Shown one piece after another: positions 16,043 to 60,104 of a DNA stretch of 64,000 nt. The position numbers were made by a program, and so were the translations under genes. The notes beneath the pieces were generated by a model. That model was not told the DNA's origin, did no database searches, and saw nothing but the letters and a program-made list of their open reading frames with translations. This DNA is from an uncultured Acidobacteriota bacterium (GTDB taxonomy: Bacteria > Acidobacteriota > Vicinamibacteria > Vicinamibacterales > 2-12-FULL-66-21): NCBI GenBank assembly GCA_963771395.1, contig CAVYTY010000023.1:250964-314963 (forward strand). Direction: 5' to 3'. Every line of letters starts with the position of its first letter. Position 1 is the first letter of the stretch.

Positions 16043-16438
16043 ATGGTGGCCGCTCGGACATTCGAGGAGCTGGATGCCTGGCAGCTGTCCAGTGAGCTCC
16101 GCGACACGATCTTCACGTTGACTGAAACGGGACCTGTTCTCAAGAACCTCAAGTTCCGCGATCAGATACGGGAGTCGTCGAGCTCGCCGCCCGCAAACCT
16201 GTCGGAAGGGTTCGGCCGTTTCAGGCCGCGCGAGTTCGCGCACTATGCGCGAATCGCGCGCGCGTCACTCCTCGAAACGCGCAACCATCTCTTGGATGGG
16301 CGAACGAAGAAGTACTTGAGCGAGGAAGACACCGCCCGCCTCCTCAAACTTCAGGTGCGAGCGACGATAGCAACAACCAGACTGCTCAGATACCTCGAGT
16401 CCTGCAAAGGCAAGCCGCCCACAGGCTGGACGTACTGA
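16043..16438 (+). CDS. four-helix-bundle protein (23S rRNA intervening-sequence protein family, Avd-like)
   Basis: FEELDAWQLSSELRDTIF...PPANLSEGFGRFRPREFAHYARIARASLLETRNHL fits the PF05635/TIGR02436 pattern. Its TGA stop is the first unit of array A2. Confidence 0.85.
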   Translation: MVAARTFEELDAWQLSSELRDTIFTLTETGPVLKNLKFRDQIRESSSSPPANLSEGFGRFRPREFAHYARIARASLLETRNHLLDGRTKKYLSEEDTARLLKLQVRATIATTRLLRYLESCKGKPPTGWTY

Positions 16439-16582
16439 ACCGCTTGAACCTCTCTGAACCTGCCCTGAACCCCTGAACCCCTGAACCTCCTGAACCTCCT
16501 GAACCCCCTTGAACCTCCTGAACCCCCTGAACCCTCTTGAACCCTCTTGAACCCTCTTGAACCCTCTTGAACCTCCTGAACT
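16436..16582. repeat. family-A array A2: 15 TGAACC + 1 degenerate units, inverted relative to A1, pyrimidine spacers
   Basis: Unit starts read at 16436, 16445, 16455, 16466, 16474, 16482, 16491, 16500, 16510, 16519, 16528, 16538, 16548, 16558, 16568, 16577. The array ends at the TAA of the M28 gene. Confidence 0.95.
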
Positions 16583-18072
16583 TACTTGCGCGGCAGCCGT
16601 TCGTCGCGCATCGAAGCGTTGTAAGCAAAGACGGCGATGACCGTGGCCTGCTGGATCATGTCGTCGGCCTGCACGCGATCGAACGTGTCCATGTTCGAGT
16701 GATGCGTGCGCGAGTTGTATTCGAGCCGGTCGACCATGAACTGAAAGGCGGGCAGGCCGACGGCGTCGAACGAGACGTGATCGGTCGAGGTCACCGAGCG
16801 GGGTCCGATCGCGAACACGCCGAGATCCTCGAGCGGCTCCATCCACTGCCGGAAGATCGGCTCGACGGCGGCGTTGCCCTGCAGCCAGATCCCTCGCACG
16901 CGACCGGTACCGTTGTCGGAGTTGAAGTACGCCGACAGCTTCTCGTGCGCCGGTGTGCGTGTCGTCGTCGCCGGATCGCCGTAGTGTTCGCGGACGTACG
17001 CGCGGGAGCCCAGCAGGCCTTCTTCTTCGCCGCCCCAGAGTCCGATCCTGATCGTCCGCCTCGGCTTCGCGCCCACGGTCGTGAGGATGCGCAGGGCTTC
17101 CATCATCGCAGCCGAGCCCGTGGCGTTGTCGGTTGCGCCCGTGCCTGCCGCCACTGAGTCGAAATGCGCGCCGAGCATCACGATTTCGTCCTTCAGCACC
17201 GGATCGCTCCCGGGCATCTCCGCGATGATGTTGAATCCGTTGTCCGTCGTTTCGTCATGGAACTTCGTCTGCACGTTGAGCTCGACTTTCACGGGCACAC
17301 CCTTGCCGAGGATCCGAACGAGGCGGTTGTAGTGTTCGACTGCGAGCGTCACGGTGGGCAGCCCGGTGCCGGCATCGGGGCCGCGCGATCCGCTGCCGGT
17401 CGGGAAGATCGTGCCGCCGTCGGGCCGCTGCTGACGCCACGACATGTCGCTTCCACCAGCGGACATGTCCGAGTCGCTGCCGCGGTTGAAGAGCGCGACG
17501 ACACCTTCGGCCTTGTAGAAGGCCTGCAGTCTCTGTTGAAAGCTGGCGGCCTCTCCTCGGCTGCTGCCGCGTCCTCCGCGCCCCGCGCCGGCTCCCCGAC
17601 CCGCGGGGACGGTGGCCGCTTCTTCAAAGTCCTTCTCCGTCATGCGTAGGACGAACGGCCCTTCGAGCATTCGCACCTCGCGCGCCGGCTGTGTGAGGAC
17701 GATCTTGCCTTTGAGCGTGCCGCGGTACTTTTGAAAGTCCGCGTCGTTTTCGATCTGCACGCGGGCGACGTCGGCAACGACGACGCCGTTCGTGCCCGAG
17801 GTCCATGAACCTGGAAAGCCGATGAGCGGCTCGATTTGCGGTTCGACGAGATGCGCGCTGAACCGCACGAGCGACCAGCCTTTGCCAAACGGAAATGTCT
17901 CGAGGTGGGGATTTGCGAGGCCCCACTCGGCAAACTTCTCGAGCGTCCAGTTGGCGGCCTGTCTGATGCCCGGGCCGCCAGTCAGCCGCGGCCCGTAGAC
18001 GTCGCTCAGCCAGCTGATGTGATCCATGACCCGGGATCGCTTCAGTCCCTCGTCGCGGATCTTCGCGATCAT
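16582..18072 (-). CDS. M28-family aminopeptidase
   Basis: 496-aa ORF with GAHFDSVAAGTGATDNATGSAAMMEALR and GLWGGEEEGLLGSRAY metal-ligand regions. The candidate signal peptide lies upstream in other frames (see findings). Confidence 0.85.
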   Translation of the reverse strand: MIAKIRDEGLKRSRVMDHISWLSDVYGPRLTGGPGIRQAANWTLEKFAEWGLANPHLETFPFGKGWSLVRFSAHLVEPQIEPLIGFPGSWTSGTNGVVVADVARVQIENDADFQKYRGTLKGKIVLTQPAREVRMLEGPFVLRMTEKDFEEAATVPAGRGAGAGRGGRGSSRGEAASFQQRLQAFYKAEGVVALFNRGSDSDMSAGGSDMSWRQQRPDGGTIFPTGSGSRGPDAGTGLPTVTLAVEHYNRLVRILGKGVPVKVELNVQTKFHDETTDNGFNIIAEMPGSDPVLKDEIVMLGAHFDSVAAGTGATDNATGSAAMMEALRILTTVGAKPRRTIRIGLWGGEEEGLLGSRAYVREHYGDPATTTRTPAHEKLSAYFNSDNGTGRVRGIWLQGNAAVEPIFRQWMEPLEDLGVFAIGPRSVTSTDHVSFDAVGLPAFQFMVDRLEYNSRTHHSNMDTFDRVQADDMIQQATVIAVFAYNASMRDERLPRK

Positions 18073-18243
18073 CGAGAGGTCGAGCTTTTCGGCAATGGGG
18101 CTGGGCGCGTGGGATGGCGATCACCCCGAGCATCAGACAGACACACGACAGACAGACGCTTCATGAGCAGGCTCCAGAGAGAGCTTCCATGCTTAGCAGC
18201 CCGTCGCGTTGACACTCGACTGTGGCTGCGGGTCGGCGTTGCT

Positions 18244-18334
18244 GGGTCATCCATTTTCTAATGCGTGCGCGGAAGCCGCTCACTCGACGAGAAAATCGAG
18301 ATTTGACCCCGGTCAACCGCAGTTGACGGCCTCG
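18244..18334. repeat. hairpin element F, copy 1 (degenerate stem)
   Basis: gggtcatccattttctaatgcgtgcgcggaagccgctcactcgacgagaaaatcgagatttgaccccggtcaaccgcagttgacggcctcgc aligns along its length with 22558-22654. Confidence 0.8.
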
Positions 18335-18422
18335 CGGCTTCATCAAGCTGCCCTCTATACCAGGTGTCAGCAAATGCTCGGGGATGCGCTATCGTAAGGG
18401 AGGTTCGCGAACCGCCCTACCC

Positions 18423-19535
18423 ATGTCCATGATGCACCCCATTTTGAGCGCGGCGCTCCTGCTGTTGCTCTCCCAGACGCCAAAGCCTGCGGTCCCGTTT
18501 ACGACGCCGTTGACGAAGGCCGAGATGGCCGGGAAACAGGCCGTCGTGGCAACCAGCGCCGGCACGTTCGTCATCGACCTGCGGCCGGAACTCGCCCCCA
18601 ATCACGTCGGTTACTTCATCAAGCTGGCGAAGGAGGGCATCTACGACGGCACGACCTTCCATCGTGTCGTGCGTCTCGGCATCATTCAAGGCGGAGATCC
18701 TCTGTCGAAGGACCCGGCGAAGATCAAGCTGTACGGCACGGGCGGGCTGGGCATCCTCAAGGCCGAAATCAGCAGCGAGAAGCACACGAGGGGTGTGGTA
18801 TCGGCCGTCCTCCAGCCCGGCCGGCCCGATAGCGCGGGGTCGCAGTTCTTTGTCGCGGTGACCGATCAGCCGGCGCTCGACGGCAAGTACACGATCTTCG
18901 GACGCGTGTCCGAGGGGCTCGACGTCGTGCAGAAGATTTCCGAAGTTGCCGCTGACGAGAGAGGCGCACCGGCCGAGCGCGTCGAGATGCGCAGCGTGAC
19001 CATCCGCGATACGCCGCCGCCGGAACCAGAGCCGTTCGCGACCGAGTCGTCCGCGGACCTCGCGAAGTATCGGGCGGCCCTCGAGACGTCCGCCGGCTCG
19101 ATCACAGTCGAGCTCCTTCCCGACAAGGCACCCGAGCACGTGCGCAACTTCCTGCGGCTGGCCTCGGCCGGAGTCTTCGACGGCACGGCCTTTCACCGTG
19201 TCGCCCGGGGATTCGTGATCCAGACCGGCGCGCTGACGTCGCGTGGCCCGTTGACCGAGAAGCAGCAGAAGTTGGTTCGGTCGCTGCAACCGGAGTTCAA
19301 CGACACCAGGCACGTGAAGGGCATCCTCTCCATGGCCCGCGGCGACGACCCGGCGAGCGCATCCACGTCGTTCTTCATCGTCACTGGTGATGCGCCGTCG
19401 CTTGATGGTAAGTACACTGTGTTTGGCCGCGTGGTCGAGGGGATGGCCGTCGTCGAGGCCATCGAGCAGTCGGCGGTCAGCGGCGAGGCACCCGTCCAGC
19501 GCGTCGACCTGAAGTCCGTTCGCGTCCTCAAATAG
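18423..19535 (+). CDS. secreted tandem cyclophilin-type peptidyl-prolyl isomerase
   Basis: Two cyclophilin domains (FHRVVRLGIIQGGDP...GSQFFV and FHRVARGFVIQTG...STSFFIV) after a hydrophobic signal segment. Confidence 0.9.
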   Translation: MSMMHPILSAALLLLLSQTPKPAVPFTTPLTKAEMAGKQAVVATSAGTFVIDLRPELAPNHVGYFIKLAKEGIYDGTTFHRVVRLGIIQGGDPLSKDPAKIKLYGTGGLGILKAEISSEKHTRGVVSAVLQPGRPDSAGSQFFVAVTDQPALDGKYTIFGRVSEGLDVVQKISEVAADERGAPAERVEMRSVTIRDTPPPEPEPFATESSADLAKYRAALETSAGSITVELLPDKAPEHVRNFLRLASAGVFDGTAFHRVARGFVIQTGALTSRGPLTEKQQKLVRSLQPEFNDTRHVKGILSMARGDDPASASTSFFIVTGDAPSLDGKYTVFGRVVEGMAVVEAIEQSAVSGEAPVQRVDLKSVRVLK

Positions 19536-19587
19536 CAACTGCGTCGCCGAGAGCCGGAACGCCGCGCACGGCGTCAAAAGGCCGGGA

Positions 19588-20838: not shown

Positions 20839-20846
20839 CCATCAGC

Positions 20847-20928
20847 GGGGACACTCAACCGGGACAGTCCCCGGGGACACTCAACCGGGACAGTCCCCAG
20901 GGACACTCAAGGTTGAGTGTCCCCGGGG
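20847..20928. repeat. family-C array C1: 2 x GGGGACACTCAACCGGGACAGTCCCC plus a palindromic variant GGGACACTCAAGGTTGAGTGTCCC
   Basis: Units at 20847-20872, 20873-20898 and 20899-20928. Inner palindromes GGGACAGTCCC and CCCCGGGG. Confidence 0.9.
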
Positions 20929-20997
20929 TGATTCGAGCCATAATGGAGGCGTGGCTTGGTGCCATTCGGAATTAAAGAAGGGTAAACGGGAAGGGTT

Positions 20998-22539: not shown

Positions 22540-22557
22540 TCAGTTCGGCGTTTGCCT

Positions 22558-22654
22558 GGGGTCAGATCTCGATTTTCTAATGCGTGAGCGGAAGCCGCTC
22601 ACGCGATTAGAAAATCGAGATCTGACCCCGGACAACTGCAGTTGACGGCCTCGC
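22558..22654. repeat. hairpin element F, copy 2: about 34-bp stem with one bulge, 3-nt loop, conserved tail
   Basis: ggggtcagatctcgattttctaatgcgtgagcgg aag ccgctcacgcgattagaaaatcgagatctgacccc, then ggacaactgcagttgacggcctcgc. It lies between the convergent NYN and dinB genes. Confidence 0.9.
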
Positions 22655-22712
22655 AAGGGTCGACACACCCGCCAATCGGATTTTGCGCTCGGCGAGGCTC
22701 GAGCGCTCAGCC

Positions 22713-24552: not shown

Positions 24553-24578
24553 TGGCCAAAACGGTCGGCCGCAGTCGC

Positions 24579-27167: not shown

Positions 27168-27274
27168 CCGGCAACAAATCCTGACCGTCCGTTCGCTTCT
27201 TTCCCATAGACGAACTATGCGTATGAACGGTTGGCAAACGGCTTGTCAAAGTTCAGGAGATTTCAATTCCAGGA

Positions 27275-27424
27275 GGTTCAGAAGGTTCAGGAGGTTCAAG
27301 AGGGTTCAGAAGGTTCAATCGTTGCTCGCACCTGAATTTGCGAGCTCGCGCCTTCGGCCGAATGGCAAAAACAATGAACCCCTGAACCTCCTGAACCTCT
27401 TGAACCTCGTGAACCCCCTGAACC
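27275..27424. repeat. family-A composite A3: 5 GGTTCA units (27275-27317), 57-bp core, and 6 TGAACC units (27375-27424)
   Basis: Unit starts 27275, 27284, 27293, 27303, 27312 and 27375, 27383, 27392, 27401, 27410, 27419. The core is homologous to the leader of the 16-kb four-helix-bundle gene. Confidence 0.9.
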
Positions 27425-27425
27425 C

Positions 27426-31391: not shown

Positions 31392-31613
31392 ACACGGATC
31401 GCAGCGATTCACGGATCAATGGACGCGGATCACTCGGGTCACAGATCGACGGGACGCGGATCACACGGATCAACAGATCAACGGGACGCGGATCACGCGG
31501 ATCAACAGATCAACGGGGACGCGGATCACACGGATCGACAGATCAACGGGACCGCGGCTCACGCGGATCACAGATCGACGGGTCGCGGCTCACGCGGATC
31601 GCAATCGCGAGCA
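31392..31613. repeat. family-B array B2: six direct about 32-bp units (GGGACGCGGATCACNCGGATCAACAGATCAAC) plus degenerate lead-in
   Basis: Unit starts at about 31421, 31453, 31485, 31518, 31550, 31582. About 16 GATC sites in about 220 bp. Confidence 0.9.
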
Positions 31614-32440
31614 AAACGTCCCGACGCGAGTTCCGCGCGGGTGAAGTGTTCGGCGAGGATCTCGTTGACCTCGGCGGCGCGGTGGATGGGCAGGCCGTGT
31701 CCGGCCGCGACGATCTCCAGATACTTCGAGCCTGGGATTGCGGCGGCCAGTGCCCGGCCAGTCGCCGGCAGCGCGATGCGGTCTTCGGCAGCGGAGATGA
31801 CGAGCGTGGGTATCGAGGCGAGCCGCGCCAGGTCTGCACCGGCGTCGTACTTCGACATGGCGCCCAACTGCTTCATGACGATCGGGGGCTGTTCCGCCAG
31901 GTCGTGACCGAAGAGCGGGTGCAGCCGTGCGGCAAGCGCGACGCGATCGACCTGCTGCAGGTATCGCTCCGGCATGATCAGTTCGAGGAATGCGTTCCTC
32001 CGCATGGCGCGCGTGCCGATGCGCATGCGCAGTGCGGTCACGAGCATGGCCGACGTGACGTTCGAGCCGTCCTTGCCTTTGGCGAACGTGCACAGGAATG
32101 CGAGGCTCTTGACCCGGGAAGGTGCGCCGAGCGCCAGCGCCTGCGCGATGACTCCACCCATCGAGTGGCCGGCGACGTGAAACCGGTCGATGCCCTCGGC
32201 GTCGATGATCGCGAGCGCGTCGGCGGCCATCGCCTCGATCGTCAACCGCCCGTCGCGCGCAGTGCTCGCGCCGATCCCTCGATTGTCGAATGAGACCAGC
32301 GTGAAACGCTCACGCAGGCCATCGACCTGAGGCGTCCACCCGTTCCCGACAATACCGACCCCCTGAATCAGCAGAACCGGCGGTCCGGTTCCGGTTCGTG
32401 AGTAGAAGAGCGACGCGTCAGGAGTGTTCAGGGTTGGCAC
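31568..32440 (-). CDS. alpha/beta hydrolase
   Basis: PPVLLIQGVG...FDNRGIGAS...GHSMGG nucleophile elbow. The last about 14 codons (DCDPREPRPVDL) and the TGA are encoded by array B2. Confidence 0.85.
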   Translation of the reverse strand: MPTLNTPDASLFYSRTGTGPPVLLIQGVGIVGNGWTPQVDGLRERFTLVSFDNRGIGASTARDGRLTIEAMAADALAIIDAEGIDRFHVAGHSMGGVIAQALALGAPSRVKSLAFLCTFAKGKDGSNVTSAMLVTALRMRIGTRAMRRNAFLELIMPERYLQQVDRVALAARLHPLFGHDLAEQPPIVMKQLGAMSKYDAGADLARLASIPTLVISAAEDRIALPATGRALAAAIPGSKYLEIVAAGHGLPIHRAAEVNEILAEHFTRAELASGRFARDCDPREPRPVDL

Positions 32441-48816: not shown

Positions 48817-49947
48817 ATGACTCGACGCCTTCTCATCGCGTGTGTCGCCGCCGTTCTCGGTTCGGTTGCAGCCGCTCAGGAGATGCGGTTCTTCTATCCT
48901 GCGCCTCCGGCGTCCGCGGTGGACGTGTCGAAGGATCAGGCCTACGGCGCGCTGCAGATGGATGTTTACCGTCCGCGGAACGCGGCCGGCAAGACCCTGC
49001 CGGCGCTCGTGTTCTTCAACATCGCGTCCGGCGCGCAGCGCAGCAATGCCTTCTACAAGGCCTGGGCGGAGATCGCGGCGTCCCGGGATCTCGTTGCCAT
49101 CCTCCCGGATCTGCGCGACGAGAGCTTCGAAAAGGATTTCGATGCGCTCGTCGCACATCTCGCGTCGAATGCGGCGAGCCTGGGCGTGGACCGCGAGCGA
49201 ATCGCCGTCTACGCAGGCTCCGGCAACGTCTTCCGGGCGCTGCCGCTCTTGCAGAACCCGAGGCAGACGACAATCAAGGCCGCCGTCATGTACTACGGCT
49301 CGGCGCAGGTGACCGAGTTCAGGCGCGACCTGCCACTGCTCTTCGTGCGCGCCGGGCTCGATCGTCCGCCGGTCAATCGCGCGATCACCGAGCTCGTGAC
49401 CCAGGCTTCGAATCAGAACGCGCCGGTGATGCTTTTGAGCTACCCCGGTGGTCACCATGCGTTCGAGATCGTTGACGATGAAGACGCGACCCGTGACGCG
49501 ATAGACAGCACGATCGACTTCGTCAAGCGCACGACCACGCCGACCTACCAGGCCTCGCTGCGCCGGGGGCTTCCCGAGGCCACGGCCGCAGCGCACGTCT
49601 CGACCGGCAACTTCGCGGCCGCGGCATCGTCATATGCCGCACTGGTCAAGACCAGGCCCGATGACGCACGGCTGAGGCTGTCATATGGCGAGGCGTTGCT
49701 GGGGGCATCGCAGTTCGATGCGGCCTGCACTGAGCTCGAGAAGCTGAAGGGGAAGGGTCTCGGTCCGCGTGACCTCGGCGTGCCCGCCGCGCGCGCGTGC
49801 ATGCAGAAGGGCGACGCCGACGCAGCCATCGCGTGGTTGAAGAGCATCCCGCAGCGCTTCCTGCCGCGCGCCCTGGAGAAGGATCCGATCTTCGCGCCGA
49901 TTCAGAACCGTGCCGAGTTCAAAGCGCTGTTTCAGACGGGCGGCTGA
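48817..49947 (+). CDS. secreted dienelactone-hydrolase-like alpha/beta hydrolase with TPR-like C-terminus
   Basis: Signal peptide MTRRLLIACVAAVLGSVAAA. LPALVFFNIASG...IAVYAGSGN...GGHHAF. Confidence 0.7.
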   Translation: MTRRLLIACVAAVLGSVAAAQEMRFFYPAPPASAVDVSKDQAYGALQMDVYRPRNAAGKTLPALVFFNIASGAQRSNAFYKAWAEIAASRDLVAILPDLRDESFEKDFDALVAHLASNAASLGVDRERIAVYAGSGNVFRALPLLQNPRQTTIKAAVMYYGSAQVTEFRRDLPLLFVRAGLDRPPVNRAITELVTQASNQNAPVMLLSYPGGHHAFEIVDDEDATRDAIDSTIDFVKRTTTPTYQASLRRGLPEATAAAHVSTGNFAAAASSYAALVKTRPDDARLRLSYGEALLGASQFDAACTELEKLKGKGLGPRDLGVPAARACMQKGDADAAIAWLKSIPQRFLPRALEKDPIFAPIQNRAEFKALFQTGG

Positions 49948-49966
49948 GATCACCGCGCGACGTGAT

Positions 49967-50072
49967 TGGACGCGGATCGTCTCAACGGGACGCGGATCTC
50001 GGAGACATATTTCAACGGGACGCGGATCTCGCGGATCGACATTCTCACGTGACGCGGATCTCGCGGATCACA
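49967..50072. repeat. family-B array B3: four direct GACGCGGATC(TCGCGGATC) units
   Basis: Unit starts at about 49969, 49989, 50019, 50051. About 7 GATC sites. It fills the gap between two convergent stops. Confidence 0.85.
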
Positions 50073-51436
50073 TCATGCCGCCTCCCGGGCTTTTCGGTAG
50101 CGTCGGCGTCGTCTGGGGGGCCGCCGGCGGCTTGAGCGTGTAGCGATACGCCTCGATGAGCCATGCGCCGGTGCGCTTCAGCACGAGCGTGACCTGCCCC
50201 TCCATCCTGGGCGTTGGTTTTCCGGACGAATCCAGAACACCGCTCAGTTCCCACTTCCCGTCGGCAACAGCGATGTCCTCTGAGAGACAGCGGATCCTGT
50301 TCAGGGCGAGCGGATGCTGCGACGAGCGGTACTCACGCCGTCTGAAGAGCTGCATGCGGTTGATGGTGATCATCTGCGCGCCCCGTTCGATTGCGCCGTC
50401 CGGGTGGATGATGTCCCCGCCCTTCGACCACAGCGCGCCGAGTTTCTCATAGTCGTGATTGGCCCAGTGGACATAGAACCGCTGCCGAGCGCCGCGATCG
50501 CCCGTTCGTCGCCGGCCGAGCATCGTTCCAGAGGGTCTGGCGCAGCGGCTGCTGAAGTTGTCGCCTCGACGCGTGGCGGTTCCGCCACGGGCGGTGGCGT
50601 GCTCGATCGCGTCGGCAGCGGCGCAGTTCTCAGGGCGGCGATATCCTGCAGGATGCCGCTCGACGAGCGCTTCGACGAACACCCGTCCCTTCTCTCGCGT
50701 CGCGCGCGTCGGATCGCCCCAGGTGCCAGTCGGCGAGTAGGTGCCCGTGCCGCCGCGCTGCCGGGTGAGTCGGCCCCCGCCAGGCGAGGGGGTGTAGTCC
50801 TTGACGGCCTTTCGTCATGTCGACGCTCGACGGATCGATGTAGAGCATCATCGAGGTCTCGACCTCGTCGGCATGCGTCCCGCCTTCCTGCTCGATGAAA
50901 CCCTTGGTCGCAGGATCGAGCCGGCTGCCGAGGTTGGTGTAGCGCATCAGCACGCCATCGGACGCGAGGAGAGCCACCGCGGGGTCGAGGGCGCGTACTG
51001 TCGAGACTCCAGTGTTGAGGACATAGAAACGGCGAGGGCCGTACGCCGACAGCGTCCGGACGACATCGGCGGTCATGTCCCTGGCGGTGGCAAGCGACAG
51101 CGACGTGGAGCCGGGATACTCGAGGAACGCCGGATAGAAGTGATAGGTCAGCGTGGGTGCGACGACAACGGCGGTCGCGTCGACCACGCGCTGTGTCAGA
51201 TAATCGGCGAGCGTCAGATCGTTGCGCAGCTTCAGATGCGGTCCGTGCTCCTTGCTGCCCGCGCCGAGCGGGATGAGGACAACCGTCTCTGGCGTGAGCG
51301 CCGGCTCGGCCTCCTGCCACGTCAGCGATTCGAGCCGCACACTCTTTTCGAGCGGGGCCGGACTGCGGCTCTGACGAGCGGAGGGCGTCGTGGAGAGCCC
51401 CAGGACACAAACAAGCGCGAAGATCTGCAGGCGCAT
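50068..51436 (-). pseudogene. creatininase-family domain fused via a Pro/Ala linker to a SnoaL/DUF4440-like domain; three frame changes (about 50807, 50655, 50480)
   Basis: ...EVETSMMLYIDPSSVDMTK / AVKDYTPSPGGGRLTRQRGGTGTYSPTGTWGDPTRATREKGRVFVEALVER / ILQDIAALRTAPLP...AGDERAIAALGS / RFYVHWANHDYEKLGALW... Confidence 0.6.
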
Positions 51437-51486: not shown

Positions 51487-51713
51487 GTGCAGAGGGTGCT
51501 AAGGTGCCCGGTGCTTAGGGTGCCGGGGTGCCAAGGTGCCCGGTGCCTGGTGCTTAGGGTGCCACGGTGCAAGGGGCCAGAGTGCCAACGGCGTTGGCGC
51601 GTTGTCCGTGACCTGGCACGCTCCGCACCCCAGCTAGGCACGAGGCACGGGGCACGCTTGCACCCCGGCACCCTAAGCACCAGGCACCGAGGCACCTTGG
51701 CACTTTAGCACCC
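51487..51713. repeat. family-D composite: about 11 GGTGCY units (51487-51573), about 40-bp core, and inverted GGCAC/GCACC units (51613-51713)
   Basis: ggtgctaaggtgcccggtgcttagggtgccggggtgccaaggtgcc... is mirrored by ...ggcaccctaagcaccaggcaccgaggcaccttggcac. Confidence 0.9.
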
Positions 51714-51719
51714 TGATAT

Positions 51720-52559
51720 ATGTCGGATTGGGACGCCGAACGGTATCACCGGGTGTCGAACCCGCAATTGGAGTGGGGCCTGCGGGTGCTGCGCCGGCTG
51801 GGTCCGCAGCCGGGAGAGCGCATCCTCGACATCGGGTGCGGGACCGGCCGCCTCACGGCGGAGCTTGCGGCGGCGATGGGCGAGGGCATGGTCGTTGCCG
51901 TCGATCGTTCCGAGACGATGCTCCGCGAAGCCGCGGGTCAGGCGGTTACACCGCCAGGGCCGCATCGGATCCCCAATCCACTGAACCACGAACGCGCGAG
52001 CGTTCGAGTCTATTTCGTCCGCGCCGACGGCGCCGCGTTGCCGTTTGTGGATATGTTCGACGCAGTACTGAGCACGGCGACGTTCCACTGGATTCTCGAC
52101 CACGACCAGCTCTTCGCGAGCATCTACCGGGCGCTTGCCCCGGGGGGCCGGCTCGTCGCGCAGTGTGGCGGCGGCGCCAACCTCGGCCGTCTGCTCGATC
52201 GCGCCGGAGCGCTTGCCGCGTCGCCCACCCTTGCGCCCTACTTCCACGGTTGGCGGGGACCGTGGGAGTTTGCCGACGTGCCGGTCACGATCGAACGGCT
52301 GGACAAGGCGGGATTCACGGCGATTGACGTCTCGCTCGAGCCGGCTCCGGTCACGTTTCCCGATCGAGGTAGCTTTCGCGAGTTCGTGTCGTGCGTGTGC
52401 CTTCGCGATCACCTCACACGGCTTCCGGACACCCATCGGCCGCAGTTTCTCGACACGCTGGCCGACGAGGCCACCCTGGATTCCCCGCCCTTCACGCTCG
52501 ACTACTGGCGTCTGAACATCGCCGCGATGAAACCCGCGGGCATCGAGCAAGCGGCGTGA
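51720..52559 (+). CDS. class I SAM-dependent methyltransferase
   Basis: ILDIGCGTGRLT motif I. The N-terminal WDAERY resembles Tam-like enzymes. Confidence 0.85.
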   Translation: MSDWDAERYHRVSNPQLEWGLRVLRRLGPQPGERILDIGCGTGRLTAELAAAMGEGMVVAVDRSETMLREAAGQAVTPPGPHRIPNPLNHERASVRVYFVRADGAALPFVDMFDAVLSTATFHWILDHDQLFASIYRALAPGGRLVAQCGGGANLGRLLDRAGALAASPTLAPYFHGWRGPWEFADVPVTIERLDKAGFTAIDVSLEPAPVTFPDRGSFREFVSCVCLRDHLTRLPDTHRPQFLDTLADEATLDSPPFTLDYWRLNIAAMKPAGIEQAA

Positions 52560-54376
52560 CCCCACCGGTTCCGTACGTCGAGAACGCCGCGCGCCACGCC
52601 AGGGACGGCGAAAAGGAGGCGCAGCTTTCGAAAGTGATCGCGCGGCTGCGGCTGACGACCTTCCTTGTCGCGCGCGGCGATTCTCGTGTGGTCGCTCTCG
52701 CACGGCGGGACGCGGTTGCAGCTCTGGACGGCCTTCCTGCTGTTCGTTGTGTTCGGCGTCCTCGTTGTCTGGCACGCCCGCGTCGACGAGCGCGTGGCCT
52801 GGCACGGCGCGCTGAGGCTGGTGAACGTGCGGGCGCTGGCTCGTCGCGCGCGCGACTGGCCTGCGCTGCCCGACGCGGAGGCCCCTACGGGCCTCGATCT
52901 GGAGGATCACCCCTACGCGCTCGACCTCGATCTCTTCGGGCGCGCATCGCTCTTTCAATGGCTCGGTCCCGCGGCGACTCCTCGTGGACGCACGACGCTC
53001 GCGACGTGGCTGCTCCGTCCCTCACCTCGCGCGGAGGTGATCGAGCGTCAGGACGCCGTCGCGCAGTTGGCGGCGCTCGATGACTGGCGCCTGACGTTCG
53101 ATGCCCACGGCGTGCTCGCCTCGAGTGCCCGGCAGAACGAGATCGACTGGTTCCTCGCCTGGGCCGAAGGGCCCGATCTCTTCGGCCGGAAGACAGGTCT
53201 CCTTCGAGCCGTTGTCCTCCCGCTCACCGGGGCGTTGTGGATCCTTATCGCCGGCGAAGTAACCGGCTGGATGCCGATCGGTCTCTGGCCCATTCCGATG
53301 GTGGCCGGCATCGTCCTGTCGTTTGCCACGGCCGAGCGCCTTCAGCAGACGTTCAATCGCGCCGGAGCCGGCCAGTCTGCGCTCGGCCGTTACGCGGGGC
53401 TCTTCGAGCACGCCATCACCGCGCCGGCTGCTTCGTCGCGCCTCCAGGCCCTCCTCGACAGGCTGTCGGCAGAGGGACAGCCAGCACCAGCATGCATGCG
53501 CCGGCTGAATCGGATCGTCGGGTTCGGCGAGCTGCGGCAGAGCTCCGATCCTGCATTTTCCCGTGCAGGCGCTGACTCTGTGGGATTTCCACGTGCTCTT
53601 CGCGCTCGAGCGGTGGCGGCGGACGAGCGGACGCCGGGTCAGAGTCTGGCTCGACGCCCTGGGCGAGCTCGATGCGCTCGGGCGGCTCGCGCACTGCGCG
53701 TCGCGACAATCCCGAGTGGGCCGTCCCATCGTTCGGGCCTGTTCGGCGAGGTGACGGCGGCCGGCATCGGCCACCCGCTCATCTCTGACGATCGGCGCGT
53801 CGCCAACGACGTCACGGTTGGTCCGGCCGGAACGGTCCTCCTCGTCACCGGGTCGAACATGTCGGGGAAGAGCACGCTGCTCCGCTCGATCGGTCTCAAC
53901 ATCGTGCTCGCCCAGGCGGGCGGCGTGCGTCTGCGCGCGACAGATGTCCCTGCCCGAGTGCGATCTCCAGACGAGCATCAGCGTGCACGACTCGCTCGAG
54001 CGCGGCCTGTCGTACTTCATGGCCGCCCTCGCGCGCCTCAAAGGCGTCGTCGACGCGGCGCAGCACGAGCGCCAGGGACGCGATGCTCGTGTATCTGCTC
54101 GACGAGATCCTGCAGGGCACCAACAGCGTGGAGCGGAGCATCGCCGTCCGCGCGGTGACGCGCCATCTGCTCGAGGCCGGCGCCATCGGCGCGATGACCA
54201 CGCACGACCTCGGTCTCGCGGAAGAAGAGCCGATGAAGAGCGCCGCGCAGTTCGTCCACTTCTCGGAGACGTTCGACGCGGACGGCACGATGCGATTCGA
54301 CTACGCGCTGAAGCCGGGCCTGGCCACGTCGCGCAACGCCTTGCGGCTGATGCAGATGATTGGGATCGAGCTGTGA
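52556..54376 (+). pseudogene. MutS-related (MutS domain V ATPase, membrane-anchored) gene with about six frameshifts
   Basis: The GTG overlaps the methyltransferase stop. The sense hops frames at about 52670, 53543, 53700, 53735, 53915 and 54080. It contains LVTGSNMSGKSTLLRSIGLNIVLAQAGG, SVHDSLERGLSYFMAAL and LLDEILQGTNS. Confidence 0.7.
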
Positions 54377-54478
54377 CAGTCGGCAGTCGGCAGTCGTCGG
54401 AATCGAGAGTCACAGTCGTCAGTCTCAGTCGACGGTCAGAGTCGACAGTCAGAGTCGACAGTCAGCAGTCGACAGTCA
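54377..54478. repeat. family-E array: CAGTCGG / GTCGACAGTCAGA units, direct
   Basis: cagtcggcagtcggcagtcgtcgg...gtcgacggtcagagtcgacagtcagagtcgacagtcagcagtcgacagtcacg. Contains four GTCGAC palindromes. Confidence 0.85.
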
Positions 54479-54564
54479 CGCGCTCAGCGGCGAAAAGCTC
54501 TGCGCGCATGACGGATTTGTTTCGACGAGAGTGCCTCGGATTGGTAGGAAGGTCCATACTGTTG

Positions 54565-56180
54565 TTGGCGCCAGTGCTTAGTCGACCCCGCTTCATCGTC
54601 TTCCTGTCGGTCCTCCTCTTGCTCGGACAGCGTTCCGGCCGGCCAGGGCCAGCCGCGATATGACCTGCTGATCGCCGGCGGTCAGGTCGTCGACGGCACC
54701 GGCGCTCCGGCCCGGCGGGCGGATGTCGCGATCAAGGCCGGGCGCATCGCGGCCATCGGCACCATCGCGAAGATCGACGCGCGGGAGGTGATCGACGCTG
54801 CCGGCCTCGTCGTCGCGCCGGGTTTCATCGACGTCCACACCCACGCCGACGACCTCATCGACCAGCCGCGTGGCGAGAACTTCGTCCGCATGGGCGTCAC
54901 GACCATCGTGGCCGGAAACTGCGGCTCGTCTTCTCTCGATGTCGGCAAGGCGTTCGACGGCGGTCGAACAGGTCGGCGCGTCGGTGAACTTCGCGACGCT
55001 CATCGGGCACAACACGGTGCGTCGTGACGTGATGGGGACTGCGAACCGCAACCCGACGATTCCCGAGCTCGACAAGATGAAGGCGCTCGTCTGGCGCGGA
55101 ATGGCGGACGGCGCCGTAGGCTTCTCAACCGGCCTCCAGTACGTGCCAGGCACCTATGCCCAGACGTGGGAGATCATCGAGCTCGCGCGCGTCGCCGGCA
55201 ACGAAGGCGGCGTGTACGCCTCCCACATGCGCAACGAGGGCACGGCGCTCGAAGAAGCCGTCACCGAAACGATCCGCGTCGGTGAGATGGCGGGCTGCCG
55301 CGTGCAGATTTCTCATCTGAAGGTCGACAGCCCCAGCCGCTGGGGTGCGAGCGCGAAGGCACTTGCGCTCATCGACGATGCCCGGAAGCGCGGCATCATC
55401 GTCGAGGCAGACCAGTATGCGTACACGGCGGCGAGCTCGTCGCTCGGCATCCGCTTCCCCTCGTGGGTGCTCGAAGGCGGTCAGGCGCAGATCAACACGC
55501 GCCTCAACGACGCGGCCATGTGGGCGAAGATCAGGAACGAGATCCGGGCGCTGCTCGCCGAGCGCGGCCTCGCGGATCTGTCCTTCGCTGTCGTGGCGTC
55601 ATATCGTGCGGATCCCTCGCTCAACGGCTTGTCGATGAAGCAGGTGGCGGCAAAGCTGAAAGGGACGGAGTCAGCCGAGGCGCAGCTCGAGGCGGCGCGG
55701 GAGATGATGCTCGCCGGTGGGGCATCGATGGTCTATCACTTCATGTCCGACGACGACATCGATCGAATCATGAAGCACCCGCAGGTCGCTGTCGCGTCGG
55801 ACAGCTCGGTGCTGACGATGGGGGAGGGCGTGCCGCACCCGCGCGGCTACGGCAACAACGCAAGAGTGCTGGGCGAATACGTGCGCGTGCGGAAGGTGAT
55901 CACTCTCGAGGAAGCGGTCCGCAAAATGACGTCGCTCCCCGCGGATCAGTTTCGATTCGCTGAACGCGGCCGGATCGCTGCGGGCGATTTCGCAGACATC
56001 GTGGTCTTCGATCGCGCGACGGTGGGGGACGCGGCGACATTCGACAAGCCGCACGCGTACGCGCGCGGCATCGCCTATGTCCTGGTCAATGGTGTGCCCG
56101 TCATCAAGAACGGTGAGCACACCGGCGCGAAGCCGGGAAAGGCGCTGACGTTGGGGAAAGCACAGACGCCCAAGCGCTGA
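54565..56180 (+). pseudogene. second D-aminoacylase-family gene, two frameshifts (about 54640 and 54955)
   Basis: Signal-like RFIVFLSVLLLLGQ / YDLLIAGGQVVDGTG...PGFIDVHTHADD...GNCGSSSLDVGKAFD / AVEQVGASVNFATLIGHNTV... to the end. Confidence 0.7.
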
Positions 56181-56261
56181 ACCCTGAACCCTTGAACCCT
56201 CTGAACCTTTTTGAACCCCTGAACCGTTTGAACCTTTTGAACCCTCTGAACCTTTTGAACC
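56178..56261. repeat. family-A array A4: 10 TGAACC units
   Basis: Unit starts 56178, 56185, 56193, 56202, 56212, 56220, 56229, 56238, 56247, 56256. The first unit contains the stop codon of the preceding gene. Confidence 0.95.
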
Positions 56262-56276
56262 CTGTTTAATCATCCG

Positions 56277-56795
56277 TCAGTCATCAGCCACAGCGAAATA
56301 GATCGCGACCGGCGCGAGCACGAGCCACACGCCAATCATCAGCGCGGGCAGCATCCAGCCGCCCGCGAGCAACGCCGAGGGCGCCTTGATGGCCGCCATG
56401 TCGGACGATGCGGCGTCCCTGACGCCGGAGACCCATCCGCCGAGCAGGCCCCCGAACCAGGGTGACAGCGCGACGAGCGCGGCGACGGTCAGCGTGATTG
56501 CGGCCACCGAGGCCACCACCTGCGCGACAGTGATCGGCCGCGCGGCTTCCCGCGCCGCTTCCTGACGCGCGCGCATCTGCGCCCGCCACCACATCACCGC
56601 GGACGAGGGGATCCGCGCGTCACCGGGTTCGTCGTTCCGGTCGTCGAGCAGCGCCCCCGCGACGTCGACGACGTCGGCGCACAGTGCGCACGCGGCCACG
56701 TGGGCGCGGAGGTCCTCGCCGGCCCGGCCGGGCCAGCGCCCGCTCGTCAGCGCATCGAGCACGTCCTGCTCACGACAGCAGTCAACGATCTTCAC
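56277..56795 (-). CDS. membrane anti-sigma factor (zf-HC2 type)
   Basis: HVAACALCADVV zinc-finger motif plus C-terminal transmembrane helices. The ATGA overlaps the sigma-factor stop. Confidence 0.8.
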   Translation of the reverse strand: MKIVDCCREQDVLDALTSGRWPGRAGEDLRAHVAACALCADVVDVAGALLDDRNDEPGDARIPSSAVMWWRAQMRARQEAAREAARPITVAQVVASVAAITLTVAALVALSPWFGGLLGGWVSGVRDAASSDMAAIKAPSALLAGGWMLPALMIGVWLVLAPVAIYFAVADD

Positions 56796-57379
56796 GAGTG
56801 GCCTCCGTCGGTATGCGCCGCCGCAGGACGCAGTATCCCCGCGAGCTTCCGCCGCGCGCGGAACAGCAGGAGCTTCACGCTCCCGGTCTTGACTCCGAGC
56901 GTCTGGGCGATTTCGGTGTGCGGATGACCCTGCGCATACGCCAGCCAGAGCAACGCCCGCTCGCGCGGCCGCAGGCGATCCATCGCCCGCCGCAGATCGG
57001 TGCGCCGGACGCTGGCCTCGGCAAGGTCACCACCAGTCGCGGGAATAGTGCTCTGATCGTGGTCCGGCAGCGGCACGGTGTGCCATCTCCTGGCGCGTCT
57101 GCGGCCGTCCCGCACGAGGTTGGTGGCGATCTGGAAGAGATAGGCACGGCGGTGCGACTCGCTTTCCCAGTGGCCGCGCGTGCGCAGGAAACGGTAGTAG
57201 CTCTCCTGCAGCAGGTCGTCGGCGACTTGCGCGTCGCACGTCATCCTGGACAGGTAGTTCCAGAGCGACCGGGCGGTTCGGTCGTAGAACGCGCGGAACG
57301 CTTCTTCGTCCATCTCGAAGGCCACGTCGACCTCTGCAGCCTCGAGCCGTTCAACGTCGGAGAACGTCAGATCGCGCAT
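56792..57379 (-). CDS. ECF sigma factor
   Basis: FRAFYDRTARSLWNYL...DLLQESYYRF (region 2) and LLWLAYAQGHPHTEIAQTLGVKTGSVKLLLFRARRKL (region 4). Confidence 0.9.
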   Translation of the reverse strand: MRDLTFSDVERLEAAEVDVAFEMDEEAFRAFYDRTARSLWNYLSRMTCDAQVADDLLQESYYRFLRTRGHWESESHRRAYLFQIATNLVRDGRRRARRWHTVPLPDHDQSTIPATGGDLAEASVRRTDLRRAMDRLRPRERALLWLAYAQGHPHTEIAQTLGVKTGSVKLLLFRARRKLAGILRPAAAHTDGGHS

Positions 57380-57383
57380 GTCG

Positions 57384-58325
57384 TCACTGTCCCGCGCCTT
57401 CGATGTGCTCGCGCGGCGGAACGGCCACGGCCGGTTCGAAGAGGCCGAGCCGCCGCGAGAGGAGGAATGACGCGCCGGCCGACACGACGAAGCCGGCGCC
57501 AACCGCCAGCGCGAGCACCCCGATGGAGAAGAGCGGCTGGGCCACTTCTTCGAGCACGCGGTTGCTCACGAAGAGCAGCCCGAGCCCGAGGGCGGCGAGC
57601 ACGACACCGATCTGCACGGACCACAAGATGCGGCTCAAGGGCGCACCGACCTGTCGCACGGGAGCCGCGGGAGCCTCGAGCGACAGCGGCGCCGATTCCA
57701 GGAATCGGCGGCCCACGGGGGTCTCCATGTAGGCCAGCAGATCCTCGTTGGTCGTAAAACGATCCAGCAATTTCTTGTGCACCTCGTTATGGACCTTTGA
57801 CGTGCGATTCCACCGCCTGTATTCGACGAGCGTTCGGATGATCCAGATCAATGCGCCGGTGCCGACGAGGAAAACGCCCGAGATGGCGAAGAAATCGAAG
57901 AGATCGCGCCAGACGCGCACCGCCTGCGATTCCCGCGTCTCGGGCGGCGAGGGGACCCAGAATTCCATCGGCCCGATGTGCTCGAAGAAGAAGCCGGGAG
58001 AGCTGCGGATGTCGGGGTGCTGCTTCAGAAACGCCGCGAGGCCCGGGTACGGGGCCAGGTAGGACTCGTTACTCAGGAGCGACGGGTCGGTCCGCAGGAC
58101 ACGGCCAACCGCGGGCGGAAGCTTCTTGAGGAGCTCCTCGAGGCTTTCCCGCGTCTCCCTGGCGTCCTGGTCCTGGTTGATGAACACCTGCGGGGCCGCT
58201 GGGGTAGCTCCGGGACGCTCGACCGGCGCGACGGCACCCTGCTGAGCCGAGGCCAGGTTCGGGACCGACAGGGCGAGAACGAGGGCCGCGAACGCCGAGC
58301 GGGTCGAAATCCGGTAGGAAAGCAT
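57384..58325 (-). CDS. membrane protein of unknown function, first gene of the ECF sigma operon
   Basis: Signal peptide plus three to four transmembrane helices. No family recognised. Confidence 0.6.
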   Translation of the reverse strand: MLSYRISTRSAFAALVLALSVPNLASAQQGAVAPVERPGATPAAPQVFINQDQDARETRESLEELLKKLPPAVGRVLRTDPSLLSNESYLAPYPGLAAFLKQHPDIRSSPGFFFEHIGPMEFWVPSPPETRESQAVRVWRDLFDFFAISGVFLVGTGALIWIIRTLVEYRRWNRTSKVHNEVHKKLLDRFTTNEDLLAYMETPVGRRFLESAPLSLEAPAAPVRQVGAPLSRILWSVQIGVVLAALGLGLLFVSNRVLEEVAQPLFSIGVLALAVGAGFVVSAGASFLLSRRLGLFEPAVAVPPREHIEGAGQ

Positions 58326-58396
58326 TAGTAAGTAGGCTCCTTACCTACACCTACCTACTACGCACCGGACCGATGGGGGTTAACACTGACAGAGTC

Positions 58397-58499
58397 GGTT
58401 CAAAGGGTTCAAGGGGTTCAAAGGGTTCAAAGGTTCAGGGTTCAGGAGGTTCAGGCCATGAACCTTGAACCTCTGAATCCTACCTGAACCCTTTGAACC
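58397..58499. repeat. family-A composite A5: 7 GGTTCA units abutting 5 TGAACC units around a 5-nt centre
   Basis: Unit starts 58397, 58406, 58415, 58424, 58432, 58439, 58448; centre ggcca; then 58459, 58466, 58474 (degenerate), 58485, 58494. Confidence 0.95.
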
Positions 58500-58507
58500 G
58501 ACTGGAT

Positions 58508-58933
58508 TCAGTAAACAGTCCAAATCCCCGGCGACGCCAGCTCGAGGATGTGTCCTTCCGGGTCACGAAAATAGAGGCTGCGGCCGCCGAGGTCCCACCG
58601 GCGATCGCGCTCGATGGTCACGCCGTGTGCGTGGAGTCTGGCCGCCCACGCGTCCATATCCGACTCGGCCGTTGAGAAAGCGATGTGCTGCGGGCCAGTC
58701 GCGTCGTGCGGAACATCGGCGAGGTTGGTCGAGGCGCCGCGCTTGCACACCAGCAGCACCTGCCTGCCGCCGACGCCCATCGCCGTCAGGCGCTCGTCGA
58801 GCGCGATGGTCTCGAAGCCGAGAACGGTCCCGTAGAACCGCACCGCCCGGGGCACGTCCTCCACGTACAGCGCTACTTCGACGATGCCGCCAACGCTGGG
58901 TGCGGTGGAGATGGCGGGTGTACCATGTCTCAA
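58508..58933 (-). CDS. VOC/glyoxalase-family protein
   Basis: IVEVALYVEDVPRAVRFYGTVLGF...HIAFS...LYFRDPEGHILEL. The proposed TTG start overlaps the aminotransferase stop (TTGA). Confidence 0.7.
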   Translation of the reverse strand: MRHGTPAISTAPSVGGIVEVALYVEDVPRAVRFYGTVLGFETIALDERLTAMGVGGRQVLLVCKRGASTNLADVPHDATGPQHIAFSTAESDMDAWAARLHAHGVTIERDRRWDLGGRSLYFRDPEGHILELASPGIWTVY

Positions 58934-60048
58934 TCGAACAGCGGCGTCAGCTCGCTCGCAATGCGCCGTAAGCCCTCGCGAAGGAACTCCTCGCGGCCGC
59001 CGAGCCAGATTCGCAGATAGCCTTGGAGCCCGACGTGCGATCCGGGCACGATGAGCGTGCTCTGATTGACCCGCACGCGTTCGGCGACGTCGAGGCTGTT
59101 GATGTCCGCATCGTACCTCACGAGCGCGATGGCTCCGGCCTGTGGCTCGCGCCAGGTGAGCCGTCCACCGAGGCGGCCGATCCACTCGCGGGCGATGGGA
59201 AGGTTGTGGGTGAGGATGGCTCGCGTGCGCGCATAGCAGCGCTCGCGATTCTCCGGCTCGACGGCGACGCGCGCGAGCCGGTCGGACAGCTTGTTGGGCC
59301 CGATCGTGAGGTAGTCGTGCTGCGACCAGCACTCCGATACGAGCGCGCGCGGGCCGACGATCCATCCCACGCGGACGCCGGGAATCCCATAGGCCTTCGA
59401 GAGGCCGCTCGTGACGATCACACGGTCGCTCAGTCCCCAGAAGCTCCTCGTGCGATCACCGTCGATCTCCGCGCCGAGATACACCTCGTCGGCGAGAATC
59501 CACGTGTTCGTGGACTCGCACCGGCTCACGATCCGTTCCATCGCGCTCGGCGAAAGGATCGAGCCGGTTGGGTTGTTGGGGTTCGAGAGATAGAGCAGGC
59601 GCGCCCGAGGTGTCACCGCGCGGTCGAACTCGTCCCAGTCGGGCTCCCAGCCCGTATCGTGTCGCAGGGTAAACGTTCGAACAGTCGCGCCGAGGCTGCG
59701 CGCAACGCCTGGCATCTGCATGTAGTTGGGCACTTCCATGGCCACCTCGTCGCCCGGCTGGAGCTGGCTCAGGGCGATCAGGTAGTTGGCTTCGGAGGTG
59801 CCGTTGGTGACTTCGATCTGCTCGACGTCCGCGCCCGGGTAGATAGCCGCGAGGCGCTCACGGAGCTCGATCGTGCCGTTCGACTGACTGTAGCCGAGCG
59901 GCTGATCCATGAAGGCGTCGAGGTCGAAGCCCATCTCGACAAGCTCCCGGAGCGTCAGCGGCCGCACGCCGCTCTCGCTCATGTCGTAGTCGACGAGGTT
60001 CTCCCAGGTCGACTGCATGCGCTCCATCGCAAATGGTTCAAGAGGCAT
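58930..60048 (-). CDS. PLP-dependent aminotransferase (class I/II)
   Basis: 372 aa with NPNNPTG and SGLSKAYGIPGVRVGW (the PLP-lysine region). Confidence 0.9.
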   Translation of the reverse strand: MPLEPFAMERMQSTWENLVDYDMSESGVRPLTLRELVEMGFDLDAFMDQPLGYSQSNGTIELRERLAAIYPGADVEQIEVTNGTSEANYLIALSQLQPGDEVAMEVPNYMQMPGVARSLGATVRTFTLRHDTGWEPDWDEFDRAVTPRARLLYLSNPNNPTGSILSPSAMERIVSRCESTNTWILADEVYLGAEIDGDRTRSFWGLSDRVIVTSGLSKAYGIPGVRVGWIVGPRALVSECWSQHDYLTIGPNKLSDRLARVAVEPENRERCYARTRAILTHNLPIAREWIGRLGGRLTWREPQAGAIALVRYDADINSLDVAERVRVNQSTLIVPGSHVGLQGYLRIWLGGREEFLREGLRRIASELTPLFD

Positions 60049-60104
60049 TGATTTGGTTCAAGAGGTTCAAGAGGTTCAGGTGGTTCAATAGGTTCAAGGG
60101 TTCT
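60035..60104. repeat. family-A array A6: 6 GGTTCA + 1 degenerate unit spanning an intra-operon spacer
   Basis: Unit starts 60035, 60055, 60064, 60073, 60082, 60091, 60099. The outer units lie inside the flanking coding sequences. Confidence 0.9.

Follow-up and report, generated by a model that had tools for sequence, protein, structure and literature searches.

Tandem repeat arrays lie flush with mostly native stop codons in the compact intergenic spacers of a Vicinamibacterales genome

Direct repeats of the heptamer TAACTGA occupy intergenic positions in Beggiatoaceae, cyanobacteria and Bacteroidetes, and have been reported to overlap the stop codons of upstream genes by the same logic as that considered here (MacGregor 2015, PMC4679880). 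They are the closest described case to the short-unit tandem arrays that we examined in a 64 kb stretch of DNA from a soil bacterium (the window; G+C ~66%), whose proteins are 80–97% identical to those of metagenome-assembled genomes (MAGs) of the Vicinamibacterales (Acidobacteriota), many of them long-read assemblies. As with the TAACTGA repeats, the units are short and directly repeated, nearly all arrays are intergenic (82 of 89 in the window and 45 related loci), and one sense carries stops in all frames and overlaps only the last codons of open reading frames (ORFs) while the other sense is open. However, the TAACTGA repeats have a single unit sequence, whereas the units here belong to many unrelated families, including TGAACC(N1-4) (family A), a 32-nt unit with GATCCGCG twice (family B), GACAGTC (family C), GGGACACTCAACC (family D) and GGTGCC (family E). 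The TAACTGA repeats also lie mostly just upstream of start codons and in one orientation; the arrays here lie beside stop codons, follow no orientation rule and are often paired as inverted arms.

Mycobacterial interspersed repetitive units (MIRUs), reportedly first described by Supply et al. in 1997, offer another comparison. Like the arrays of the window they are tandem repeats in tight spacers between genes, with ends that fall on flanking stop and start codons (PMC12548453). However, MIRU units measure 46–101 bp against 7–38 nt here, and MIRUs hold a small ORF coupled translationally to the downstream gene in a fixed orientation, whereas orientation is free here. In the window, 45 nt of array separate the TGA of threonine dehydratase from the ATG of the aminotransferase, with no start codon and no bridging ORF among them. 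A literature search found no paper on such arrays in Vicinamibacteria and nothing relevant on repetitive extragenic palindromic (REP) sequences at termination codons or on bacterial foldback arrays.

A first-pass annotation of the window had proposed that the arrays donate the stop codon of the adjacent gene, citing six stops and one start, and all seven sequence statements are right when the DNA is read directly. The TGA of the four-helix-bundle (4HB) gene (16436–16438) lies within cTGAACC, that of the D-aminoacylase gene (56178–56180) is followed by ACC CTGAACC, and that of the threonine dehydratase gene, on the minus strand at 60096–60094, lies within TGAACC. The alpha/beta hydrolase gene stops at 31568–31570 (ctgTGATCCGCG), its last 12 residues (DCDPREPRPVDL) being encoded by the first family-B unit. 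The SnoaL-like/DUF4440 gene stops at 50068–50070 (atgTGATCCGCGAGATCCGCG), the MutS-related ORF 54083–54376 ends TGACAGTCGG at 54374, and the aminotransferase gene begins ATG CCT CTT GAA CC at 60048. Arrays also extend right up to coding sequence, as had been said. The observation is real; what it was taken to mean is another matter. Judging from orthologues, an array supplies the stop in only two of the six cited genes, the hydrolase and 4HB genes, whereas elsewhere the TGA is the gene's own ancestral stop. We consider it probable that compact spacers place arrays flush with native stops, and that the few nucleotides common to stop and unit mimic stop donation.

Tandem arrays were listed with Tandem Repeats Finder (TRF; Table 1). 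The orthologue set comprised 80 syntenic loci from a scan of a genome collection with the aminotransferase as query; loci are 20 kb each, come from syntenic relatives and are given here as L-numbers. Orthologous 3' ends were located by tblastn and then translated up to the stop. For four of the six genes, array-free orthologues end at the same residue with TGA, the outcome that the annotation itself had named as contrary to its claim. D-aminoacylase orthologues of 88–89% identity (L003, L005) read ...K-R-TGA at the same codon, followed by unrelated REP-like hairpins and no family-A units, and in L008 the stops of this gene and its neighbour are spaced TAG-c-TCA. The MutS-related gene has TGA at the same codon in ~15 orthologues. 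Array-free examples are L004, L008, L014, L016, L017 and L027; in L003, L005, L006 and L007 the TGA is followed by a family-C array, and in L011 by a family-A array in the stop-free sense. The SnoaL gene ends ...G-G-x-M-TGA at the same codon in L005 and L006, where degenerate family-B units follow; L003 has TAG at this codon and no array, and the stop of the convergent neighbour is 4 nt off (TAG-tccg-TCA).

The tail of the threonine dehydratase is variable. That of the array-free L007 has the same length as in the window (EWSNAD against EWSKNP before the stop). The threonine dehydratase TGA lies within an overlapping aminotransferase start, ATG-CCN-ATT-GAA-C, in L007 (ATGCCGATTGAAC), L024, L025, L031 and L038 (overlap at ATGCCNATTGAAC in all five), so the TGAAC context is ancestral. 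In all four of these genes the stop is therefore the ancestral one and the protein unchanged. The aminotransferase sequence had also been read as a donated unit. Its first residues, MPLEPF, are homologous to MPIELF or MPIETF in orthologues, and represent this conserved N-terminus and not a repeat unit. The core Pfam domains of the six cited proteins are complete well ahead of the stop, so the arrays reach at most unstructured tails.

The two genuine cases differ from these. Hydrolase orthologues are mostly 274 aa long and end ...RAERxxx. Two relatives, L002 (86% identity) and L085 (82%), have a native TAA or TGA 16–18 nt before family-B units in the same orientation, and L086 and L087 have no array. 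The native stop is gone in the window and in L001 (97%), and the homologous spacer is read through into the array. The two use different frames, the window ending ...GRFARDCDPREPRPVDL-TGA and L001 ...ELSLAIAVARSASRIVIRVIRVR-TAA. The extension runs ~16 aa past typical orthologues, and with the native stop lost the array serves as a backstop. Homologues of the 4HB protein end ...CKGKAPTGW plus 0–4 residues (TY, TS, DCEP or NREP), and some have EPEPEP tails, which are GAA-CCN read from TGAACC units. The array begins straight after TGG in the DNA of L083, L084, L088 and L090, while in L091 (59% identity) the gene has a TAA of its own, with a spacer of 24 nt. Across many homologues, the residues after the conserved TGW and the stop itself come from array units. 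Relatives also carry array-encoded threonine dehydratase tails, of 21 additional aa in L008, 10 in L010 and ADCRL before the stop in L005. Separately, the M28 peptidase orthologue of L084 (10477–10500) seemingly reads ~5 codons into a family-A array in the stop-free sense and ends where a variant unit gives rise to a TGA.

Placement statistics were obtained by running TRF on the window and 45 Vicinamibacterales loci (853 kb in total), with genes called by a home-made codon-score ORF caller that was trained on the window and misses small genes. Of 77 gaps between an array and a 3' end, 19 measure 3 nt or less, where uniform placement within the spacer predicts 5.6 (P<5e-5); of 69 gaps to a 5' end, 4 are this short, where 4.3 are predicted. 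Gaps to 5' ends have a median of 96 nt, and in 31 of the 47 co-directional spacers the array is closer to the 3' end. Insertion targeted at gene ends, one of two explanations that had been offered, is not supported by occupancy, which is similar for convergent (15%), divergent (12%) and co-directional (12%) spacers.

The claim that the mRNA reads the stop-rich sense in every case holds only for the cases that were picked, and the orientation rule is an ascertainment effect. Five gene ends in the window abut arrays in the stop-free sense (Table 1). Within 12 nt of 3' ends, 14 arrays present the stop-rich sense and 11 are antisense-rich (9 and 9 in co-directional spacers), which argues against selection keeping a stop through orientation. 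Stops in the sense and antisense directions number 15 and 0 in family B and 9 and 0 in family A; family C is opposite, its + sense, which faces the MutS-related gene, having 0 stops and the other strand 7.

The three in-phase TGAACC stops are not random. TGA is followed by ACC at only 11 of 398 TGA stops (2.8%), yet every sense-oriented family-A array of the window, three in all, adjoins such a stop. Over the stop codon, in-phase identity to the following unit amounts to 0.48 per base; over the nine bases before it, to 0.27. This rise indicates that the arrays end at the stop and do not enter coding sequence. Automatic choice of the local period is imprecise in this test where unit spacing varies (it missed the TGAACC repeat after the D-aminoacylase gene), and only the difference between the stop codon and the bases before it was taken from the test.

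A pattern scan of metagenomes for TGAACC arrays returned at least 120 contigs (L094–L213) of very mixed habitats and GC contents, and the usable sample consisted of 36 high-GC contigs among the matches listed. Among these matches, 3–4 of 7 stops on the sense side lie inside the array and 3 native stops lie 11–30 nt upstream, while 5 of 8 arrays on the antisense side begin ≤5 nt from the stop. The sample agrees with the window and loci on position and orientation. A 4HB homologue is present in only 2 of the 120 contigs among the matches listed, so family-A-like arrays are generally not tied to the 4HB gene. Metagenome contigs from a wide range of habitats and GC contents commonly carry arrays of the TGAACC type, and in several high-GC contigs the units right before the first TGAACC read CGAACC, AGAACC or GGAACC.

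These results can be accommodated as follows. Short spacers after genes would be colonised by many families of tandem arrays with units of 7–38 nt. The affected gene pairs nearly touch in array-free relatives (stop-to-stop or stop-to-start distances of -11 to ~40 nt), so an array persists only in the few nucleotides at the stop, and these few permissive positions would leave arrays flush with stops in either orientation. Stop and unit have 2–7 nt in common (TGA with TGAACC; GTGAT with GTGATCCGCG; the AA, AG or GA that ends a stop with the purine spacer in GGTTCA units), which makes the stop look like the first repeat unit. Short matches of this kind (for example TGA, TGAAC, GTGAT or the purines at the end of any stop) may anchor the junction, either at insertion or in later loss of spacer. 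Where the native stop is lost, the ORF would enter the array; the stop-rich sense would end it within 1–2 units, as for the hydrolase and 4HB genes, and the stop-free sense would give longer array-encoded tails such as arise in relatives. Birth of arrays in situ, by slippage of the ancestral junction AATGCCGATTGAAC, was not adopted as their origin, since other loci carry the same unit families. The units GAATGCC (L010), CCGACTG (L005) and TTGAACC (window, L006) each resemble a register of AATGCCGATTGAAC, a resemblance retained only as support for anchoring by short homology.

An inverted partner lies near 44 of the 82 intergenic arrays, the remainder being solo. Roughly half of them are therefore arms of long hairpins of the foldback kind, built from tandem repeats. 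One such pair encloses the 4HB gene in a cassette with the order (GGTTCA)n, a leader of ~105 nt, the PF05635 gene and (TGAACC)n (window 15786–16581); the protein matches PF05635 at 1.5e-20. Inverted (GGTTCA)n/(TGAACC)n arms surround the gene in the window, L083, L084, L088, L090 and L091, and the architecture is kept down to 59% protein identity. The cassette of L088 is reversed between the same flanking genes relative to L090, L084 and the window, and the cassette appears to be invertible. A 97%-identical copy of the 4HB gene sits in another context in L083, which suggests mobility, and the L091 cassette also has a different context.

The cassette has smaller counterparts in the window. A gene-less miniature (27260–27425) contains a 55-nt copy of leader sequence at 27319–27374 and folds at -95.8 kcal/mol (z = -9.3); at the same site after PadR, L002 has a solo TGAACC array only. 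A bare family-A hairpin at 58397–58499 folds at -67 kcal/mol (z = -9.5). Families B (~11190–11500) and E (51493–51712) also form inverted pairs. The foldback pairs fold, whereas the solo arrays at 31409, 49980, 54375, 56177 and 60055 do not. An Rfam scan of the whole window gave no family at threshold and no rRNA, so the cassette leader is not a known RNA.

Drosophila foldback (FB) transposons have long inverted termini built of short tandem repeats in variable copy number, and their versions include some with a gene inside, some with just a short core and some with almost none. The 4HB cassette, the miniature and the bare hairpin match these three versions. However, FB elements are eukaryotic, and here we found no transposase or excision footprint and no target-site duplication at 58397–58499. 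The intervening sequences of 23S rRNA are similar to the cassette in that a PF05635 ORF lies between inverted repeats that can pair into a long stem. They differ in that the cassette lies outside an rRNA gene, flanked by multicopper oxidase and M28 peptidase genes, and has tandem arrays as its stems. We raise, as a speculative suggestion, that these elements may belong to an undescribed class of bacterial foldbacks in Vicinamibacterales, with tandem-array arms and in cargo, gene-less and bare forms, which would spread or regrow at gene ends by short homology to the stop context, reshape C-termini and act as 3'-end hairpins.

Foldbacks are also found in the spacer after the aminotransferase stop (window 58325–58930), where seven species have them with different unit families (window, L003, L005, L006, L007, L011 and L015; loci ~11120–11400), and L004, L008 and L010 have simple hairpins. 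Their units are GGGATCA, CTCGGCG, GCGGCTC, GGGACACCCAAT, TCGGTGA and GGTTCA, and each foldback starts 0–6 nt past the stop. These hairpins are equally compatible with a function at the 3' end and with a permissive landing spot. Beside the family-A foldback of the window is a glyoxalase/VOC-family gene (58508–58864) that, among the relatives examined, only L014 has in the orthologous spacer; it looks like an insertion.

We give a function at the 3' end rather less than an even chance. The arrays, above all the foldback pairs, might act as terminator-like or RNA-stabilising elements, or on termination in the manner of REP sequences, their position being selected. A hairpin of differing sequence follows the aminotransferase stop in nearly every species examined, inverted partners are frequent, and both foldbacks scored above fold far better than shuffles. 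Liang, Rudd and Deutscher are said to have reported in 2015 that E. coli REP elements near stop codons affect translation of the upstream gene. REP sequences and bacterial interspersed mosaic elements (BIMEs) resemble the arrays in being dispersed hairpin-forming families in 3' spacers, often a few nucleotides from stops, and the relatives L003–L006 and L019 carry simple REP-like hairpins in these same spacers. However, the stems here are tandem arrays, many arrays are solo and unable to fold, and in five of the six cited cases a solo array cannot fold alone. No RAYT-type (TnpA_REP) transposase was seen in the 64 kb window or the 20-kb loci, although no search aimed at one was made. No T-tract follows the foldbacks of the window, and the same pattern is expected from selfish elements surviving only in permissive spots. 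Coincidence is a less likely account: arrays would fill any spacer, and alignments of TGA units with TGA stops would simply have been picked out. The six cases were indeed chosen by eye, and ORFs cannot cross stop-rich arrays and so must end there, an argument also made for the TAACTGA repeats (PMC4679880). Moreover, when 60 nt are reserved for the downstream promoter, the co-directional excess disappears (12 against 11.8 expected). The excess in convergent spacers persists, however (7 of 30 against 1.9; P~0.001), and neither the TGA-plus-ACC stops beside all three sense-oriented family-A arrays nor the jump of in-phase identity exactly at the stop codon is expected by chance.

It is improbable that arrays provide the stop codon through insertion at gene ends or growth into them, with selection then keeping them in the stop-rich orientation as a backstop to translation. 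The hydrolase and 4HB genes are real cases of this kind, the units of families A and B carry stops in the forward sense and none in reverse, and TGA, the leakiest stop codon, accounts for 63% of the stops counted. However, array-free orthologues have four of the six stops at the ancestral position, and several relatives keep a native stop 11–30 nt upstream of a stop-rich array. Selection for tandem (backup) stop codons would be expected to leave an excess of the stop-containing orientation downstream of genes; neither the 3' ends counted above nor the metagenome sample has one. Still less credible is that the arrays or their junctions are artefacts of long-read metagenome assembly. Many related contigs are long-read MAGs, and two genes of the window are frameshifted, the MutS-family gene (52487–54376) being in three frames and the D-aminoacylase gene (54641–56180) in two, whereas the L003 and L006 orthologues are intact. 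These frameshifts are either long-read indel errors or pseudogenes, and probably indel errors of the assembly. However, array families, cassette architecture and junctions all recur in independent assemblies, including short-read contigs (the JGI loci L088, L089 and L091 and the k141 assemblies L011 and L017). Assembly quality leaves only single-base details of frame uncertain.

Several points weigh against arrays that merely come to lie flush with native stops in compact spacers, the reading we prefer. The flush excess is modest once promoter space is reserved (19 against 13.7 overall; P = 0.008), gene calls are approximate, as described above, and since the compared loci are syntenic relatives some array sites are not independent events. 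The frameshifts make exact frames within arrays uncertain, that of the hydrolase tail included. The microhomology step rests on a handful of junctions, the presence of the same unit families at many loci is left unexplained, and a stop that has kept its codon might nonetheless stem physically from an array.

Table 1. Array families, arrays, cassettes and adjoining genes of the window, and 4HB cassettes of related loci. Start positions of families are from TRF.
Feature	Position	Strand	Remarks
Family A, core GGTTCA/TGAACC, 7–10-nt period	15786, 16435, 27270, 27375, 56177, 58397, 58459, 60055		TRF
Family B, 32-nt unit with GATCCGCG twice	11255, 11422, 31409, 49980		TRF
Family C, GACAGTC	54375		TRF
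Family D, GGGACACTCAACC	20846, 63020		TRF
Family E, GGTGCC	51493, inverse at 51636		TRF
Multicopper oxidase stop	TGA 15782–84		array 1 nt off, stop-free sense
Family-A array, (GGTTCA)n on + strand, left arm of 4HB cassette	15786..15915	-	1 nt after multicopper oxidase TGA, stop-free sense of that gene
4HB cassette leader, tgtttttgctattcggccgaaggcgcgcgttcgcagattctgaaacgatcc...	15916..16018	+	near-identical in L083; diverged yet recognisable in L084
4HB gene, PF05635	16019..16438	+	alternative start 16043; TGA forms first TGAACC unit
Family-A array (TGAACC)n, right arm of 4HB cassette	16435..16581	+	0-nt gap to M28 peptidase TAA
M28 peptidase stop	TAA 16582–84	-	array 0 nt off, stop-free sense
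Gene-less cassette miniature: (GGTTCA)n, 55-nt leader fragment, (TGAACC)n	27260..27425	-	begins 1 nt past PadR stop
PadR stop	TGA 27426–28		array 1 nt off, stop-free sense
Family-B array, 32-nt unit GTGATCCGCGTGATCCGCGTCCCGTTGATCT on minus strand	31409..31606	-	first unit encodes hydrolase tail DCDPREPRPVDL and stop
Alpha/beta hydrolase gene	31568..32440	-	~16-aa tail from former spacer and first array unit; native stop lost
Family-B array	49950..50073	-	fills convergent spacer between gene 48883–49947 and SnoaL gene
SnoaL-like/DUF4440 gene	50068..50682	-	TGA at ancestral codon
MutS-family C-terminal ORF, frameshifted; whole gene ~52487–54376	54083..54376	+	TGA at ancestral codon
Family-C array, CAGTCGG/GACAGTC units	54375..54479	+	directly after MutS TGA
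D-aminoacylase gene; N-terminal part 54641–54955 in other frame	54957..56180	+	TGA at ancestral codon
Solo family-A array (TGAACC)n	56177..56263	+	fills convergent spacer between D-aminoacylase gene and gene 56277–56795
Gene 56277 end	56277		array 13 nt off, stop-free sense
Hairpin-only family-A foldback, (GGTTCA)n ggcca (TGAACC)n	58397..58499	.	fold
VOC gene end	58508		array 8 nt off, stop-free sense
Aminotransferase gene	58930..60048	-	N-terminus MPLEPFAMERMQSTW orthologous to MPIELFEMERMQSTW
Family-A array	60049..60103	-	between threonine dehydratase stop and aminotransferase start
Threonine dehydratase gene, PALP domain	60094..60993	-	tail ...EWSKNP, then stop
4HB cassettes of related loci	L083 9700–10600; L084 9780–10480; L088 2280–2945; L090 2335–2945; L091 2150–3080

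The convergent spacer that carries the solo family-A array after the D-aminoacylase gene is occupied by classical REP-like hairpins, such as cttccgcctgaaggcggaagccac and catccggctttagccggattc, at the same site after the orthologues of the D-aminoacylase gene and gene 56277 in L003–L006 and L019. The end of gene 56277–56795 resembles a 12-nt duplication, with GCTGATGACTGA beside CGGATGATTAA (window 56264–56290); the second copy matches the ...GAT-GAT-TAG end of the orthologues and lies 1–2 nt from the array edge.

The claim of stop donation is mostly explained away, and this is a useful caution for the reading of raw sequence: when a genome is so compact that repeats can persist nowhere but at the stop, a few bases common to stop and unit give native stops the look of repeat units. 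Of more interest than stop donation is the by-product, the foldback elements and the 4HB cassette. Soil Acidobacteriota are abundant and poorly studied, and the window and its relatives point to a rich, fast-turning population of tandem repeats and foldbacks at their gene ends. One family seems to be an invertible cassette around a four-helix-bundle gene of the Avd/intervening-sequence type. These elements appear occasionally to rewrite C-termini, as in the hydrolase tail, the threonine dehydratase tails of relatives and the EP-repeat tails of 4HB proteins. The arrays and foldbacks could serve as strain markers, and could offer a tractable case for the co-evolution of repeats and gene ends.

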